Shown one piece after another: positions 37,155-44,123 of a stretch of DNA of 44,261 nt. Each line of letters starts with the position of its first letter. Positions within the stretch are counted from its first letter, which is position 1. This DNA is from Escherichia phage vB_Ec-G9. A program made the position numbers and the translations under genes. The notes beneath the pieces were generated by a model. The model did not search any database and was not told where the DNA came from. It was given only the letters and a program-made list of their open reading frames with translations. The stretch lies in sequence record PQ433351.1; one strand, written 5' to 3'.

Positions 37155-37616
37155 ATGGAAGTTTGGAGGCCTATTGCTGGTATACCAGATTACATGGTTT
37201 CCTCCTTTGGTCGTGTTAGATCTCATAAAAGAGGTAAGGTTACTATACTAAACCCTCCGCACGACAAAGGAGGTTATCGTAATGTTGTGCTACGTGTTAA
37301 TGGTGAAAAGATAAATCGCAAGGTACATAGGCTTGTGGCAGAGGCTTTCTTACCTAACCCTCACGGTTTACCTCAAGTAAATCACAAGGATGAAGTAAGA
37401 GACAATAATCATGTAAGTAATCTGGAGTGGTGTGATTGTGCATACAACGTAGATTACTCTCAAGCAGCTACTTATACTGTGATGTGCCCTAAAGGTAATA
37501 TCTTAGTAGTAAGGAATGTGGCTAAGTTTTGTAGGGAAAACGGATTAAGCAGTGGTTCTTTTACAGATATGCTTAAGGGAAGACGTAAGCAACATAAGGG
37601 TTATCGCTTAGTGTAA
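37155..37616 (+). CDS. HNH homing endonuclease (NUMOD4 + HNH)
   Basis: WRPIAGIPDYMVSSFGRV (NUMOD4-like) and VNHKDEVRDNNHVSNLEW (HNH). Confidence 0.8.
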   Translation: MEVWRPIAGIPDYMVSSFGRVRSHKRGKVTILNPPHDKGGYRNVVLRVNGEKINRKVHRLVAEAFLPNPHGLPQVNHKDEVRDNNHVSNLEWCDCAYNVDYSQAATYTVMCPKGNILVVRNVAKFCRENGLSSGSFTDMLKGRRKQHKGYRLV

Positions 37617-37669
37617 TACTTAGTGAGAGGGCTATACATGCCAAGTGGAAAATTTGATATGTATATGCG

Positions 37670-37980
37670 TCAAGTGTCTCGCCCTCGCCCTCGCCGGGTT
37701 GTCCCCATAGGGTGGCCTGAGGGAATCCGTCGAAGACGGGCAGGGCTGATGTCCTCCTTGGCTAGTACAAGGGAAGACCGAGGGAACGCCTAGGACGGCC
37801 TAGGGAATGGTTTAGTGGCGGACAAGGTGATTGCCTTAGTGAAGCCTCTTAGTACATTCCTGAGGCCATTCAGGGCGTTTATGAGGCATTGACAGGGTGG
37901 GCGTGGGTGGGCTATCTGTTCGTTTCGTTCACTCCGCTTGCGCTACGTTCACTCGCTCACGTGTACCTTAGGTTGTTCCT
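37670..37980. other. GC-rich non-coding segment; candidate terminal-repeat / genome-end region
   Basis: No ORF of 60 aa or more on either strand in 37617-38418; composition unlike flanking genes; short direct repeat CGTTCACTC twice. Confidence 0.3.
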
Positions 37981-37990
37981 TGATGGATAG

Positions 37991-38093
37991 CTTAGGTTAG
38001 CCTTAGTGGACTACCTTAGTTATAACCTTAGTGCTTATCTTAGTAATAGCTTAGTAGTGTACCTTAGTAAGTCTTAGTGTCTTCTCTTAGTGA
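37991..38093. repeat. array of about 9 short [CT]CTTAG[GT] heptamer-like repeats at about 12-bp period
   Basis: GCTTAGG, CCTTAGTG, CCTTAGTT, CCTTAGTG, TCTTAGTA, GCTTAGTA, CCTTAGTA, TCTTAGTG, TCTTAGTG; further scattered copies to 38410. Confidence 0.8.
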
Positions 38094-38238
38094 TTGCACA
38101 TGCAAGCATGTAAGATGCCATTAGGTCGCGGTCGGTAGACCGCTAAAGAAAGAGAATAGTAATAAGATGCAGTAGGAGGAACACCAGAAACCTAGCCAAC
38201 CTAGCCTATCCTAGCTCTGTATCTATTGCTTTTCCTTA

Positions 38239-38254
38239 GTCTCACATGTTAGAC
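38239..38254. repeat. palindrome variant GTCTCACATGTTAGAC (copy 5)
   Basis: One half-site base changed. Confidence 0.75.
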
Positions 38255-38288
38255 AACCTAGCTTATTCTTAGTGATGATAACTTAGTG

Positions 38289-38317
38289 TTGACAAGATAA
38301 TCTTAGTGTAATACTAT
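38289..38317 (+). promoter_or_regulatory. host sigma70-type early promoter candidate
   Basis: TTGACA - 17 bp - TACTAT. Confidence 0.55.
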
Positions 38318-38389
38318 GCATCACGTAGGCGGTGCTGAGGCACCTAGTAGCCAGCTAGTAAGGCATACGAAGAGACTAGCGCTTACATT

Positions 38390-38401
38390 GCTCTTTAACA
38401 A
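38390..38401 (+). promoter_or_regulatory. boxA-like antitermination element (copy 1)
   Basis: GCTCTTTAACAA, extended TTGCTCTTTAACAATTTG, identical to E. coli rrn boxA core. Confidence 0.6.
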
Positions 38402-38460
38402 TTTGCTTAGTGTAACCTATGTATGCCGTGGTTAATTACTTATTGAATGAGGGATTAACT

Positions 38461-38640
38461 ATGACATTAAACAACCGTGAACTATCCGTTCTCTTCACTC
38501 TGTTGTGCTACATGATTCGTAACAACGAATTGCTTACAGATGACGAGTTGGCACTGTATCACCGCTTTCTTAACGAAGGTTGGACCGATACAGTTAATCA
38601 ATACCGTAACATGATAGATGAGTTGAGGGAGGGTAAATAA
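38461..38640 (+). CDS. early hypothetical protein (59 aa)
   Basis: RBS GAGGG before ATG 38461; ORF-track start 38419 lies inside an inverted repeat and lacks an RBS. Confidence 0.55.
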   Translation: MTLNNRELSVLFTLLCYMIRNNELLTDDELALYHRFLNEGWTDTVNQYRNMIDELREGK

Positions 38641-38864
38641 TGTATCAACATGAGGTATTCTTTGAATCAGCTAGCGAAGCTATTCGCTTCCGTGATGATA
38701 TGATGCAAGCTGGTGTAGGCGTTGATGTGTATCACTATTTGATAGATTACGACACTGAATATCACCGAGTTACCTTAGTATCTGAGTATGACAACCAAGT
38801 CATTACTGAGTATCTAGGCAGTGAAGATTACGATTACGATGAAGTAATCACGACAAATCTCTAA
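38640..38864 (+). CDS. early acidic Asp/Tyr-rich protein (74 aa)
   Basis: RBS GAGGGAGGG; ATG overlaps upstream stop; acidic C-terminus EDYDYDEVITTNL. Confidence 0.6.
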   Translation: MYQHEVFFESASEAIRFRDDMMQAGVGVDVYHYLIDYDTEYHRVTLVSEYDNQVITEYLGSEDYDYDEVITTNL

Positions 38865-38872
38865 ATTAACTG

Positions 38873-38901
38873 TTGACAGCCACGGCATACAAGGTTACAT
38901 T
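38873..38901 (+). promoter_or_regulatory. host sigma70-type early promoter candidate
   Basis: TTGACA - 17 bp - TACATT. Confidence 0.5.
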
Positions 38902-38934
38902 AAGCATCAAGACGGCGACGTCTTTAAACATCCC

Positions 38935-38946
38935 GCTCTTTAACAA
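38935..38946 (+). promoter_or_regulatory. boxA-like antitermination element (copy 2)
   Basis: CCGCTCTTTAACAAGATG. Confidence 0.55.
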
Positions 38947-38993
38947 GATGGCTAGTGTCTTGATAGGCTAACTGACTAACTAAGGTAATTATC

Positions 38994-39104
38994 ATGAAAG
39001 GTTTAATTTGTGTAGAACGTATGGTCAATGGTAAACTTGAAATATTACCACTGGAAAACCAATCTAGCTTCAAAGAGTGGTATGGCTGTTTCTCACTGAT
39101 TTAA
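38994..39104 (+). CDS. early hypothetical small protein (36 aa)
   Basis: ATG 38994; weak RBS; flanked by boxA copies and a short inverted repeat. Confidence 0.3.
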   Translation: MKGLICVERMVNGKLEILPLENQSSFKEWYGCFSLI

Positions 39105-39146
39105 AGTAAAGGCTGGCACTAGTCAGCCTATCAAGGCACTATCCTT

Positions 39147-39158
39147 GCTCTTTAACAA
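39147..39158 (+). promoter_or_regulatory. boxA-like antitermination element (copy 3)
   Basis: TTGCTCTTTAACAATTTG, 18/18 identical to copy 1. Confidence 0.6.
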
Positions 39159-39253
39159 TTTGGAAGGTAGCTTCTTAGTCGGGATAGGTTAGACCTAGGG
39201 CATTCTTTGAGTGCCCTATAATGTAACCTAACTAACTAATGAGGATTAATAAC

Positions 39254-39610
39254 ATGGCTATGTCTAATATGACTTACTCTCAGGTTTACAACACCGCTCA
39301 CGCTGCATTAGTTGAACGTATCTGGGATGATGCTATTGATTGTATCGATAACGCACATGATGCAATCCATGAGGTGGCGGATAGTGCTGTACCAATCTAT
39401 TATGCTGACATCTTCTCAGTGATGGCCAGTGAAGGCATCGACCACTTCTTCGAGGATTCTGGCTTAATGCCAGACACTAAGGATGTGACGGTCGTACTAC
39501 AAGCCCGTATTTATGAACAACTCACCATTGATTTATGGGAACGTGTTCAAGATATGATTGATGCGTACATCGACTCAGCCGAAGATTTAGAAGAAGAAGA
39601 GGAAGAATAA
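39254..39610 (+). CDS. ocr: Ocr-like DNA-mimic anti-restriction protein (T7 gene 0.3 homologue)
   Basis: MAMSNMTY... [18 protein letters not shown]...[13 protein letters not shown]...[15 protein letters not shown] closely matches T7 Ocr as recalled; acidic EEEEEE C-terminus; RBS GAGGA. Confidence 0.85.
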
Positions 39611-39612
39611 AG

Positions 39613-39726
39613 ATGGAAAAGCAATATAACTTTATCTTTTCTGATGGTGTAACCTTGAAATGCTCCTTACGATTCGCCCAGATTCGCGAGGAAGTGCTAG
39701 GTACTACATATAAACTATTTATCTGA
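39613..39726 (+). CDS. early hypothetical small protein (37 aa)
   Basis: ATG 3 nt after ocr stop; below ORF-track cutoff. Confidence 0.3.
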   Translation: MEKQYNFIFSDGVTLKCSLRFAQIREEVLGTTYKLFI

Positions 39727-39740
39727 CACTATAAGAGAGG
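39716..39740 (+). promoter_or_regulatory. phage-promoter-like variant (ACTATAAGAG)
   Basis: TATTTATCTGACACTATAAGAGAGG: upstream half matches, +1 region differs. Confidence 0.35.
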
Positions 39741-39805
39741 ATTTAACAGGGCGTTACTTGTTAGCGCCCGATTAAGTTTATCTCAATAAACCAAATAGGT
39801 GACTT

Positions 39806-40690
39806 ATGACTACTGAAAACACCCTCCTGTCTGTTCGTGAAGCTGCAACCGCTGAGATCAAGCAACACTTAGACAATATCGGCACTTCTTACATCAAAGT
39901 TGGCGCTTGTCTTAATGAGTTACGCGGTGACTTTGAAGGTCAAAAAGACTTTTTGGCTTATGTAGAATCAGAATTTGGAATCAAGAAAGCACAATGTTAC
40001 AAGCTGATGAGTGTAGCCCGTGTCTTTGAAGGCGATGATCGCTTTAAAGGCGTGGCGATGCGTGTAATGCTGGCACTTGTTCCTTTCGCTGATGAAAATA
40101 TCATCATGGAGAAAGCCGCAGAACTTGCCGCAGCGGGCAAGCTGGACACTAACGCCGTGAACGCCCTGATTGAGCCTAAGAAAGAGCCAAAGTCTGAGAC
40201 GGTACAATCCAAGGCTGAGCCTGTAAAACCGAAGGAGAACGCGACTGCGGCCGCAGAATTACAGGAAACGCAAGCGCCGCAGGAAGTGCCGCCAGCAAGT
40301 GAGTCGGATGACGACAAATCAGCACCGTGGGAAGAGGAAAGCAAGCCGGAAGCGCCAAAGGCCGCGCCACTGGACAACACGGCTAACACTGAAAACGCCG
40401 CTATGGCTGGCCTACTGGCACAAATTAAGGCACTGACTGAGCAATTACAGGCAGCTAACGACCGCATCGCCGCCCTAACCAGTGCACGTGAAAGCAAGAA
40501 GGCAGCCGCGCCTATGCTTCCCCAATTCAAATCTAAATGTCTCTATGCTCGCTTGGGTTTAAGCGCTGAGGAGGCAACGAAGAAAACAGCAGTTAACAAG
40601 GCACGCCGCGAACTGGTTAAGCTAGGCTATGGTGAAGGCCATGAAGCATGGGCCTTAATCTCTGAGGCAGTAGAAGAATTAACTAAGTAA
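39806..40690 (+). CDS. early protein with low-complexity Pro/Glu/Lys/Ala-rich central linker (294 aa)
   Basis: ORF immediately upstream of RNAP gene (position of T7 gene 0.7); noticeably GC-richer codon usage; no kinase motifs seen. Confidence 0.6.
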   Translation: MTTENTLLSVREAATAEIKQHLDNIGTSYIKVGACLNELRGDFEGQKDFLAYVESEFGIKKAQCYKLMSVARVFEGDDRFKGVAMRVMLALVPFADENIIMEKAAELAAAGKLDTNAVNALIEPKKEPKSETVQSKAEPVKPKENATAAAELQETQAPQEVPPASESDDDKSAPWEEESKPEAPKAAPLDNTANTENAAMAGLLAQIKALTEQLQAANDRIAALTSARESKKAAAPMLPQFKSKCLYARLGLSAEEATKKTAVNKARRELVKLGYGEGHEAWALISEAVEELTK

Positions 40691-40753
40691 CCTTATCGGT
40701 GGCATCTTCTTAGGTGTCACCTATTAAGGTTTCTTTCACTAGGAGTAAACAAG

Positions 40754-43381
40754 ATGCAAGACTTACACGCTATTCAACTTCAACTTGAAGAAGAAATGTT
40801 TAACGGCGGTATCCGTCGCTTTGAAGCGGACCAACAGCGCCAGATTGCATCCGGTAATGAATCAGACACGGCATGGAATCGCCGCTTATTGTCCGAGTTA
40901 ATTGCGCCAATGGCTGAAGGTATTCAGGCATACAAGGAAGAGTATGAAGGTAAAAGAGGCCGTGCACCGCGTGCATTAGCTTTCATTAACTGCGTAGAAA
41001 ATGAAGTGGCAGCGTATATCACGATGAAAATCGTTATGGATATGCTGAACACGGATGTAACCTTGCAGGCTATAGCCATGAATGTAGCTGACCGCATTGA
41101 GGACCAAGTACGTTTTAGCAAGCTGGAAGGTCACGCCGCCAAATACTTTGAGAAAGTTAAGAAGTCACTTAAGGCAAGTAAGACTAAATCATATCGCCAT
41201 GCGCACAACGTAGCGGTCGTGGCTGAGAAGTCAGTAGCTGACCGTGACGCTGATTTCTCTCGCTGGGAGGCGTGGCCTAAAGATACCTTGCTACAAATCG
41301 GTATGACCTTGCTAGAAATACTGGAAAATAGTGTATTCTTCAATGGTCAGCCTGTCTTTCTTCGCACCTTGCGCACTAATGGTGGCAAGCATGGCGTTTA
41401 CTACTTACAGACTAGCGAACACGTAGGTGAATGGATAACTGCATTTAAAGAGCACGTAGCTCAGCTGAGTCCAGCCTATGCACCTTGCGTTATTCCTCCG
41501 CGTCCGTGGGTTTCTCCGTTTAATGGTGGCTTTCACACCGAGAAGGTGGCGAGTCGTATTCGTCTGGTTAAAGGAAACCGCGAGCACGTCCGCAAGCTGA
41601 CCAAAAAGCAAATGCCAGCGGTTTACAAGGCTGTTAACGCTTTGCAGGCGACTAAGTGGCAGGTTAATAAAGAGGTTTTGCAGGTAGTAGAGGACGTTAT
41701 CCGTCTCGACCTTGGTTATGGTGTGCCTTCCTTTAAACCACTCATCGACCGTGAGAACAAGCCAGCTAATCCAGTGCCGTTAGAGTTCCAGCACCTGCGA
41801 GGCCGTGAACTTAAAGAGATGCTAACGCCAGAACAGTGGCAAGCTTTTATAAACTGGAAAGGAGAATGTACCAAGCTGTATACCGCTGAAACTAAGCGCG
41901 GAAGCAAGTCGGCGGCGACCGTTCGCATGGTAGGACAAGCGCGCAAGTACAGCCAGTTCGACGCGATTTATTTCGTGTATGCACTGGATAGCCGTTCACG
42001 CGTTTATGCGCAATCTAGCACGCTCTCTCCGCAATCAAACGACTTAGGCAAGGCATTGCTCCGTTTTACCGAAGGGCAGCGTCTTGATAGCGCTGAGGCG
42101 CTTAAGTGGTTTTTGGTGAACGGGGCGAATAACTGGGGTTGGGATAAGAAAACTTTTGACGTGCGCACCGCTAACGTGCTGGATAGCGAATTTCAAGACA
42201 TGTGCCGCGACATTGCAGCCGACCCGCTGACCTTCACTCAATGGGTAAATGCTGATTCCCCTTACGGCTTCCTTGCATGGTGCTTTGAATATGCGCGTTA
42301 TCTGGATGCACTGGATGAAGGCACGCAAGACCAATTCATGACGCACCTACCCGTCCATCAAGACGGTAGTTGCTCTGGTATCCAGCACTATAGCGCGATG
42401 TTACGCGATGAAGTAGGTGCGAAAGCAGTAAACCTTAAGCCTTCTGACTCCCCTCAAGATATTTATGGCGCGGTTGCGCAGGTTGTTATCCAGAAGAATT
42501 ACGCCTACATGAATGCAGATGATGCAGAGACTTTCACATCTGGAAGCGTCACACTTACAGGTGCAGAACTGCGTAGCATGGCTAGTGCGTGGGATATGAT
42601 AGGAATCACTCGCGGCCTGACCAAAAAGCCCGTAATGACACTACCTTATGGCAGCACACGTCTAACCTGCCGTGAATCAGTGATTGATTATATCGTTGAT
42701 TTGGAAGAAAAAGAGGCCCAACGAGCTATTGCCGAAGGGCGGACGGCGAATCCCGTGCACCCTTTTGATAATGACCGCAAAGACTACCTTACACCTGGTG
42801 CAGCCTACAACTATATGACGGCTTTAATTTGGCCTTCTATCTCTGAGGTTGTTAAAGCTCCTATAGTGGCGATGAAGATGATTCGCCAGCTTGCACGTTT
42901 CGCAGCTAAAAGGAATGAAGGGTTAGAATACACCTTGCCAACTGGCTTCATCTTGCAACAAAAGATAATGGCTACCGATATGCTCCGTGTATCCACTTGC
43001 TTGATGGGTGAAATCAAGATGAGTCTACAGATTGAAACTGATGTAGTGGATGAAACGGCAATGATGGGCGCTGCCGCTCCTAACTTTGTTCACGGGCACG
43101 ATGCTAGTCACCTTATATTAACGGTATGTGACCTTGTTGATAAAGGGATTACATCTATCGCAGTAATTCATGATTCTTTTGGCACTCATGCAGGCCGTAC
43201 AGCCGATCTACGCAACAGCTTAAGGGCAGAAATGGTGAAGATGTATCAAGGCCGTAATGCACTGCAAAGCCTGCTAGATGAGCACGAAGAACGCTGGTTA
43301 GTTGATACAGGAATCCAAGTACCAGAGCAAGGAGAGTTTGACCTTAACGAAATCTTAGTATCTGACTATTGCTTCGCATAA
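40754..43381 (+). CDS. single-subunit DNA-dependent RNA polymerase (T7/SP6 type)
   Basis: [39 protein letters not shown] and C-terminal SDYCFA match T7 RNAP catalytic and C-terminal motifs; 875 aa. Confidence 0.95.
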
Positions 43382-43706: not shown

Positions 43707-44123
43707 ATGCGTAAATCATTAGCTCAAAGAGTAGAGCAAGCAGGTTATACTATACAAGACGACGGCACTATCAAAGGTAAACGAGGTAACACCTTGAAAC
43801 CCTGGCTTCAATCTTCAGGATATCCAGTTGTAAATATAGTATTCAAGAAAGGTACAAGAACAACTACCCTTGTGCATCGCATAATTGCTAGTAAGTATTG
43901 TCCTTGCTCTGACCCATTGGCTAATGATGTAAACCACAAAGACGGAAACAAGACTAATAATGCAGCTTCTAATCTTGAATGGATTACACGTAGGCAGAAC
44001 CGTAATCACTATTTAGGTTTTGAGGACTATATGATACTTACGGCAGATGATGCCCGTAAGAAGAATAATGAGCGCACTATTGCTCGACGTAAATTACTTA
44101 AACAGTTGAATAATAAGGATTAA
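43707..44123 (+). CDS. HNH homing endonuclease
   Basis: LVHRIIASKY ... VNHKDGNKTNNAASNLEW; RBS GGAGG. Confidence 0.8.
   Translation: MRKSLAQRVEQAGYTIQDDGTIKGKRGNTLKPWLQSSGYPVVNIVFKKGTRTTTLVHRIIASKYCPCSDPLANDVNHKDGNKTNNAASNLEWITRRQNRNHYLGFEDYMILTADDARKKNNERTIARRKLLKQLNNKD

Follow-up and report, generated by a model that had tools for sequence, protein, structure and literature searches.

The early region of Escherichia phage vB_Ec-G9 raises two linked questions: whether the open reading frame (ORF) at 39254-39610 encodes an Ocr-type inhibitor of host defences, and whether the small genes that surround it hide further, undescribed anti-defence functions. The window analysed here is the whole 44,261-nt sequence (PQ433351.1), the circularly permuted ~44-kb genome of a K1E/K1-5-like Vectrevirus, an SP6-type podophage of the Autographiviridae, Molineuxvirinae. 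Positions 38000-40750 matched 104 phage records by megablast, the best of which are Vectrevirus genomes (T205P5 at 95.2%, AAPEc6, K1E and K1-5). Nucleotide 320 of K1-5 aligns with position 38000, and the physical left end therefore lies near 37680. The early genes, named here by the K1-5 numbering (gp1, gp2, gp3 = ocr, gp4, gp6 and gp7 = RNA polymerase), are laid out as follows.

38461-38640, + strand: gp1, 59 aa, mildly acidic, orthologue of K1-5 gene 1 and SP6 gp3; phrog_9275; preceded by a GAGGGA Shine-Dalgarno sequence
38640-38864, + strand: gp2 (K1-5 gene 2), 74 aa, net charge -14; phrog_6403
38994-39104, + strand: 36-aa ORF in a variable cassette slot, without a PHROG; may be translated
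39254-39610, + strand: ocr, in the position of K1-5 gene 3 and homologous to T7 gene 0.3, 118 aa, net charge -25
39613-39726, + strand: gp4, 37 aa, slightly basic, 3 nt 3' of the ocr stop codon; phrog_11746
39806-40690, + strand: gp6, 294 aa, orthologue of SP6 gp7; phrog_4571; not among the genes named in the initial annotation
40754-43381, + strand: single-subunit phage RNA polymerase (gp7), annotated as RNA polymerase in relatives; closes the early region

Our main reading of the first question, to which we would give a probability of about 90%, is that the ORF at 39254-39610 is ocr in a K1E/K1-5-like Vectrevirus and encodes an early-expressed DNA mimic that blocks type I restriction-modification (R-M) and, by extension, BREX. 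The initial annotation had described the product as a close match to T7 Ocr, and that call is right. The ORF starts with ATG, encodes 118 aa and contains all of the motifs that were quoted, and its matches to the Pfam family PF08684 'DNA mimic ocr' (142.8 bits against a cutoff of 25, E 5.3e-42, model positions 1-100 of 101), to T7 Ocr in PDB entry 1s7z (residues 1-117 aligned to 1-117 with no internal gaps, E 9e-42) and to phrog_2568 'ocr-like anti-restriction' (E 5e-49) are all far beyond chance. Nine PDB entries besides 1s7z also match, with the T7 protein present in several complexes, and a homologue is found in 571 phage records. The protein holds 29 D/E against 4 K/R, which gives its net charge of -25, and has a pI of 4.05. 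A GAGGA Shine-Dalgarno sequence lies 8 nt upstream of the start at 39254, from which the N-terminus reads MAMSNMTY, identical to that of T7; an alternative in-frame ATG at 39239 was rejected as the start because it overlaps this Shine-Dalgarno sequence.

Judged by its reading frame and its substitutions, the gene is intact and under purifying selection. Its pN/pS is 0.00-0.10 in comparisons with eight Vectrevirus relatives and 0.25-0.32 in those with T7 and SP6, and because nearly all differences from the eight relatives are synonymous, the protein is probably functional. All seven alleles compared have I53, F54, V56, M57 and A58, and the conserved central segment corresponds to the one through which T7 Ocr dimerises. 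That the ORF might instead be a decaying or inactive remnant is hardly credible, given a full-length intact frame, a good Shine-Dalgarno sequence, a pN/pS no higher than 0.10 among close relatives and the retention of both the core and the acidity.

The resemblance to T7 Ocr (gp0.3) is concentrated in particular parts of the protein. Over its 117 aa, the T7 protein shares 76 residues (65%) with the 118-aa vB_Ec-G9 protein, and identity rises to 100% over residues 1-8 and to 88% over residues 46-96, which include an identical 15-residue central segment. Several further features are held in common, including identical core segments, a poly-acidic C-terminal tail, a pI of about 4 and acidic residues at 24 of the 34 positions that are acidic in T7. 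By contrast, residues 9-45 are 43% identical and the acidic tail 33%, and the net charge is -28 in T7 against -25 here. Because residues 9-45 and the tail diverge from T7, the target range of vB_Ec-G9 Ocr could differ. The genomic setting also differs: whereas gene 0.3 is the first gene of T7, ocr in vB_Ec-G9 is preceded by gp1, gp2 and a second promoter.

Closer matches come from within Vectrevirus. K1E Ocr is identical to that of vB_Ec-G9 over residues 1-111 and 99% identical over its full length, and the proteins of AAPEc6, VEc3, fTuEco01 and ACG-C91 are 97-98% identical, with the few differing residues in the tail. All five phages share with vB_Ec-G9 the gene order gp1-gp2-...-ocr-gp4, but unlike it they carry extra small ORFs together with gene 5. 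The ocr orthologues of relatives are labelled 'ocr-like anti-restriction' in RefSeq and 'protein Ocr' in GenBank. By these comparisons, vB_Ec-G9 ocr is a known and already annotated kind of gene, and its identification is correct and ordinary; Ocr is a textbook anti-restriction protein, the vB_Ec-G9 allele is essentially identical to deposited, labelled ones, and the value of the result lies mainly in annotation. Several GenBank records place a 'protein kinase' label under the Ocr match, which we regard as a mis-annotation, as Ocr has no kinase-family Pfam match. One Vectrevirus record also carries a 'protein kinase' label somewhere in its early region.

A second class of allele, represented by K1-5 gp3 and K1F gp0.3, belongs to the same family, and the K1-5 copy occupies the same genomic slot, but K1-5 Ocr is only 49% identical to vB_Ec-G9 Ocr overall and 61% in the core. 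Two divergent Ocr allele classes thus circulate within Vectrevirus. Comparison with the RNA polymerases makes the pattern clearer. Unlike T7, vB_Ec-G9 is SP6-type, with an RNA polymerase 86% identical to that of SP6 and 32% to that of T7, and the corresponding Ocr identities are 61% and 65%. SP6 and T7 likewise share 32% identity in their RNA polymerases and 79% in Ocr, whereas for K1F and T7 the values are 63% and 63% (the latter over the core, 78 aa). As RNA polymerase identities track taxonomy and Ocr identities do not, Ocr alleles have passed between phages of the T7-like and SP6-like groups. The 83% identity between the Ocr proteins of K1-5 and the T7-like K1F likewise shows that one allele has replaced another by horizontal exchange. 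Ocr thus travels between the two groups separately from the remaining genome.

Expression signals ahead of ocr fit an early role. Sigma-70-like promoters and boxA elements precede the gene, the phage RNA polymerase gene follows it, and the signals are arranged in this order:

38289-38317, + strand: sigma-70-like early promoter upstream of gp1, TTGACA-17-TACTAT, 10/12 consensus match
38389-38405, + strand: rrn-type boxA element 1, TGCTCTTTAACAATTTG, containing an exact CTCTTTAACAA and found at the same place in all relatives
38873-38901, + strand: second sigma-70-like promoter, TTGACA-17-TACATT, 10/12 match, conserved in K1-5 and K1E
38934-38947, + strand: boxA element 2, CGCTCTTTAACAAG, with the exact 11-mer at 38936-38946
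39146-39162, + strand: boxA element 3, TGCTCTTTAACAATTTG, 106 nt ahead of the ocr start
39171-39244, + strand: long imperfect hairpin between boxA element 3 and the ocr Shine-Dalgarno sequence (z = -3.9; 0/200 shuffles fold as well)

The number of sigma-70-like sites in the early region is not above shuffle expectation, and as the site count is uninformative, the promoter call at 38289-38317 rests on its position and on the boxA element downstream. The boxA elements themselves are more distinctive. Elements 1 and 3 are identical at 16 of 17 bases to the E. coli rrn boxA-spacer ugcucuuuaacaauuua, a sequence tabulated in PMC2724277 (Table 1), and element 2 has the exact 11-mer. This 11-mer, CTCTTTAACAA, occurs exactly three times in vB_Ec-G9, always within the early region, and the boxA consensus UGCUCUUUAACAAUUUA has five matches with at most one mismatch in the whole sequence, three of them exact, against 1.0 expected. 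The segment around element 2 is 80-88% conserved in distant Pectobacterium, Edwardsiella and Klebsiella phages and in SP6. The T7 early leader holds the same 11-mer at nt 814-824, 111 nt ahead of gene 0.3, although T7 has a single boxA where the vB_Ec-G9 early region has three.

The order boxA, hairpin and Shine-Dalgarno sequence is also collinear with that of the T7 leader, in which a comparable hairpin sits at the same relative position. Seven phages, T7 and SP6 among them, yield a consensus structure for the hairpin at 39171-39244 in which five pairs persist although both partners have changed, and we regard the hairpin as a putative RNase III processing site. The CTCTTTAACAA repeats had been entertained as RNase III sites and were dropped, as they match the rrn boxA-spacer exactly and the hairpin is the better candidate. 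An Rfam scan of 37600-40800 returned nothing but sub-threshold snoRNA noise. The presence of three rrn-type boxA signals on the early transcripts provides a handle for studying the uncharacterised early genes.

Taken with what is established for the T7 protein, these elements suggest how the system may work. Host RNA polymerase would transcribe the early genes from the sigma-70 promoters, and the three boxA elements on the transcripts may, by analogy, recruit NusB/NusE for antitermination. The conserved long hairpin lies just ahead of the ocr ribosome-binding site, as in T7, and synthesis of Ocr would fall in the first minutes of infection. If it behaves as T7 Ocr does, the protein would form a highly acidic dimer imitating bent B-form DNA and would fill the DNA-binding groove of host type I R-M enzymes, the targets here being those of the T7 protein; by extension, it may also occupy the BREX methyltransferase. 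The incoming unmodified genome would in this way escape cutting. That a type I restriction/BREX inhibitor is encoded here, as the initial annotation suggested, is backed as firmly as sequence by itself permits by the full-length homology, the conserved core, the acidity, the purifying selection and the early context, and such a role is accordingly probable.

Ocr is described as blocking R-M and BREX through DNA mimicry, and is also reported to be able to inhibit host RNA synthesis (PMC13645617; PMC12455610). These reports raise the prospect that the protein here serves mainly in some other capacity, whether as a BREX inhibitor, through interference with host RNA polymerase or as a liability that triggers Ocr-sensing abortive systems. 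Apart from the literature, the several complexes in which the T7 protein is found across PDB entries would fit such a role, and two allele classes with alleles crossing subfamilies are what would be expected if hosts select on the protein. However, activities of this kind are compatible with anti-restriction and would use the same DNA-mimic surface, so that sequence cannot separate them, and we consider a different main role rather unlikely. On the preferred reading, anti-restriction by DNA mimicry, vB_Ec-G9 is predicted to withstand both type I R-M and BREX, a point relevant to predicting the host range of therapeutic phages of the K1 type.

The second question concerns the neighbours. The initial annotation had placed four uncharacterised and mostly acidic early genes beside ocr, at 38461, 38640, 38994 and 39613, and had proposed this stretch as the likeliest location of additional anti-defence functions. 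All four ORFs are present at those starts, and uncharacterised is an apt description: none has a Pfam, NCBIfam or PDB sequence match, the PHROGs of gp1, gp2 and gp4 are of 'unknown function', and across Pfam, NCBIfam, PHROG and PDB searches, with fold searches for gp2, no likeness to any characterised protein was found for gp1, gp2, gp4 or the 36-aa ORF. A literature search on early-gene functions in Vectrevirus, K1-5 or SP6 found nothing specific. The description 'mostly acidic' does not survive, as only two of the four are acidic and one of them strongly so: net charge is -14 for gp2 (pI 4.05), -4 for gp1 (pI 4.7), 0 for the ORF at 38994 (pI 6.0) and +1 for gp4 (pI 7.9).

By their conservation, gp1, gp2 and gp4 are genuine conserved genes. 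The first, gp1, has a pN/pS of 0-0.18 against Vectrevirus relatives and 0.28 against SP6, in which it is 69% identical, and its homologues form 118 clusters, all without names and mostly on ~44-kb phage-like contigs. A match between gp1 and designed pentatricopeptide repeat proteins (E 8e-5) was set aside as chance inflated by repeats, since no single stretch passes. For gp4, pN/pS is 0.00-0.04, and the comparison with K1-5 yields 12 synonymous and 0 non-synonymous differences (0.00); it is 74% identical to an SP6 ORF that lacks annotation.

The homologues of gp2 fall into 46 clusters at 66-99% identity, mostly from ~44-kb phage-like contigs. The C-terminal half of gp2 is invariant and acidic/aromatic (EYLGSEDYDYDEVITTNL), its N-terminal half is variable, its pN/pS is 0-0.14 and it has a weak counterpart in SP6 (22%, E 0.015). 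The AlphaFold model (pLDDT 83.5) has a beta-alpha-beta-beta-alpha-beta, ferredoxin-like arrangement, for which Foldseek against the PDB gave a best E of 7e-4 at 11-17% identity and TM 0.5-0.7, with PII, CutA, ACT, NikR and designed ferredoxin folds scoring equally. We therefore rejected membership of the PII/GlnB-like or ACT families, as the generic ferredoxin-like fold alone is what is common to them and gp2 has no Pfam match; a match to fibronectin (E ~0.5) is at chance level. The nearest viral models are uncharacterised proteins of ~70 aa from Citrobacter, Pectobacterium and Proteus phages.

The 36-aa ORF at 38994 is of a different character. None of the seven annotated relatives that were inspected lists it as a gene (two others are records without annotation), and the protein is 100% identical in six relatives. 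These differ by 0-1 nucleotides, so that selection on it is unreadable. The promoter, boxA and leader that stand ahead of it precede longer, unrelated ORFs in K1E, fTuEco01 and SP6, and no similarity was found between it and the ORFs in the same slot of K1E, fTuEco01, ACG-C91 and SP6.

Between gp4 and the RNA polymerase gene lies gp6, the largest of the uncharacterised early proteins. Its place, ahead of the RNA polymerase gene, is the one that the gp0.7 kinase takes in T7; no homologue of that kinase was found anywhere in the 44,261-nt sequence, and gp6 has no kinase-family Pfam match. JSS1_004 proved to be a homologue of gp0.7 kinase and has no bearing on this region. An exhaustive search recovered gp6 homologues in 136 cluster representatives, and the gene is present in 213 phage records, from podophages of ~43-47 kb infecting Escherichia, Klebsiella, Vibrio, Pseudomonas, Erwinia and Marinomonas. 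It mostly falls in the first few kb of the record, and a search of plasmids found none. Its pN/pS is 0.10-0.15.

At pLDDT 53, the AlphaFold model of gp6, which is all-helical and has a disordered linker at residues 117-192, is too poor for fold searches, and the fold was accordingly approached through family sequence profiles. These suggest a DUF3102-like N-domain, a disordered acidic/Pro-rich linker, a coiled coil and a C-domain that is J-like but has no HPD motif. Although gp6 itself matches neither DUF3102 (PF11300) nor DnaJ (PF00226) in Pfam, 30 of 99 relatives match DUF3102 at E < 0.01 (one of ten checked passes the cutoff, 26.7 against 24.4 bits), and 11 of 99 match DnaJ, all below the cutoff (best 26.0 against 27.8 bits). 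The family profile matches PDB J-domains at E 0.0036-0.6, and the C-terminal ~50 residues align to J-domain helices II-III with an hhalign probability of 94.6% over 48 columns. In this respect the C-domain resembles the J-domain co-chaperones. However, the HPD position reads GEG in gp6, and HPD is found in none of the 99 aligned family members (NPD, TPE, SKT and others stand in its place). Because HPD is absent and DnaJ scores fall under the Pfam cutoff, gp6 is best described as J-like, and its membership of the true J-domain co-chaperones was rejected. A match to an integron cassette protein (E 0.69) is at chance level. A J-like domain without HPD in a conserved 294-aa early protein of SP6-type phages offers another handle on the uncharacterised early genes.

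What, then, might these proteins do? We think it most likely that gp1, gp2, gp4 and gp6 are conserved early proteins that act as host-takeover factors, redirecting host physiology in the manner of the T7 gp0.4-0.7 products rather than inhibiting defence, and would give this about even odds. They are core early genes under strong purifying selection, with gp1, gp4 and gp6 67-74% conserved in SP6 and gp2 weakly so; gp6 is spread over podophages of many host genera, occupies the slot of the missing kinase, and has a J-like domain that points to an interaction with a chaperone or another host protein. Since they form a conserved core, are under purifying selection and are present in SP6, these genes fit host takeover better than they fit arms-race accessory genes. 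Against this, the T7 0.4, 0.5, 0.6 and 0.7 proteins give no matches in vB_Ec-G9, and the T7 kinase is itself described as a broad anti-defence factor (PMC13645617), so that the two categories overlap.

For the proposal that the neighbours include at least one undescribed anti-defence protein, the case is only circumstantial, and we hold it tentatively, as a possibility with clearly worse than even chances. The strongly acidic gp2 is the most plausible candidate: it packs a net charge of -14 into 74 aa, is predicted to be expressed ahead of ocr from the first promoter, and combines a variable N-terminal half with an invariant C-terminal one. These genes also enter the cell and are transcribed before any others, in a region where Ocr alleles are swapped between phage subfamilies and cassettes are gained or lost among relatives; K1E, fTuEco01 and ACG-C91 have extra small ORFs upstream of gp1 and between gp2 and ocr. 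Yet acidity by itself is weak evidence, the fold of gp2 is generic and unlike known inhibitors, gp1 is mildly acidic, and gp4 and the 36-aa ORF are not acidic. Moreover, gp1, gp2, gp4 and gp6 are core genes, found also in SP6 and strongly constrained, whereas vB_Ec-G9 has little in the slots that do vary, as it lacks gene 5 and has the 36-aa ORF alone between gp2 and ocr.

Host takeover thus remains the reading that we prefer for the neighbours. That the proteins flanking ocr include a mechanism of host manipulation or anti-defence that is altogether undescribed is a more speculative idea, which we view as doubtful, with gp2 and gp6 as the candidates. If it were true, gp6, which stands in for the T7 kinase in SP6-type phages, might bind host Hsp70 or some other partner without a catalytic role.

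The early region is also compact. Gene 5, which lies between gp4 and gp6 in all relatives and whose small products have hydrophobic or signal-peptide-like segments, is cleanly deleted in vB_Ec-G9 when aligned with relatives, and the distance from boxA element 1 to the RNA polymerase start, 2363 nt, marks the shortest early region among eleven phages compared. Two elements lie between the end of gp4 and the start of gp6, the first of them overlapping gp4:

39717-39739, + strand: phage-RNA-polymerase promoter-like site, ATTTATCTGACACTATAAGAGAG, overlapping the end of gp4 and resembling the repeated vB_Ec-G9 motif ATTTACTGGACACTATAGAAGAG
39749-39769, + strand: GC-rich hairpin 3' of the promoter-like site (z = -5.6), a terminator-like scan match

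The promoter-like site is kept in T205P5, K1-5, K1E and SP6, and the junction of the gene 5 deletion comes after the hairpin.

The phylogeny of Ocr, the DNA-mimic anti-restriction protein encoded at 39254-39610, is at odds with that of RNA polymerase when the window is compared with T7, SP6, K1-5 and K1F. Ocr is 79% identical between SP6 and T7 and 83% identical between K1-5 and K1F, and the RNA polymerase of the window shares 86% identity with that of SP6 but only 32% with that of T7. Ocr has thus been exchanged horizontally between phage subfamilies. Several GenBank phage records (among them OL964749 for T7, MH382198, OQ729742, MT431699 and OR924234) label the Ocr locus 'protein kinase', which looks like a propagated mis-annotation; in the Vectrevirus record OR424384.1 this label falls somewhere within the early region.

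Around ocr, the early region contains the following features:

38389-38405, 38934-38947 and 39146-39162, + strand: three rrn-type boxA antitermination motifs (sequence match)
39171-39244, + strand: long imperfect hairpin between the third boxA and the ocr ribosome-binding site
39717-39739, + strand: site resembling a phage RNA polymerase promoter, ATTTATCTGACACTATAAGAGAG, which overlaps gp4 at its 3' end
39740-39805: gene 5 deletion junction, a clean deletion in the window
39806-40690, + strand: gp6, a conserved early protein of 294 aa in the SP6 gp7 family

All three boxA motifs lie within the host-transcribed early region, and two of the three sites read TGCTCTTTAACAATTTG, which matches the E. 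coli rrn boxA-spacer at 16 of 17 bases. Whereas the T7 early region has one boxA, the window has three; at least one copy was present in all 11 related early regions compared, with at least three in each SP6-type phage. The hairpin is kept across Vectrevirus, SP6 and T7 with compensatory changes, its 3' arm extends into the ocr Shine-Dalgarno sequence, and it is probably where RNase III processes the ocr leader.

The start of gp4 lies 3 nt after the ocr stop codon (39610-39616). Translational coupling of this 37-aa protein to ocr is suggested because its sole Shine-Dalgarno-like sequence, GAGGAAG, sits inside ocr and is formed by codons of the Ocr poly-glutamate tail.

The promoter-like site, also kept in K1-5, K1E, T205P5 and SP6, would mean that gp6 and the RNA polymerase gene have a phage promoter upstream of them in addition to the host promoters, an arrangement that suggests possible autoregulatory amplification. 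Gene 5, whose products are small and have signal-peptide-like or hydrophobic segments, was found in all nine Vectrevirus relatives examined and is missing from the window, whose early region is the shortest among eleven phages compared; in SP6 its slot is occupied by SP6 gp6. The gp6 of the window takes the slot of the T7 kinase. Its N-domain is DUF3102-like and its C-domain is J-like but lacks the HPD motif; between them lie a disordered acidic/Pro-rich linker and a coiled coil. Homologues of this protein occur in 213 podophage records, and none were found in plasmids.

Three further features lie towards the genome ends or after the RNA polymerase gene:

37155-37616: HNH homing-endonuclease-like ORF (NUMOD4, HNH_3 and I-HmuI NUMOD-like), near the right genome end
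37607-38412: dense repeat array of the heptamer CTTAGTG, with CTTAGTA variants
43707-44123: HNH homing-endonuclease-like ORF (HNH_3), directly after the RNA polymerase gene

Short-repeat arrays adjoin the terminal repeats of T7, and the CTTAGTG array, directly before the first early promoter, is reminiscent of these: 11 of the 21 copies of the heptamer in the window are packed into ~800 nt at the genome-end region.
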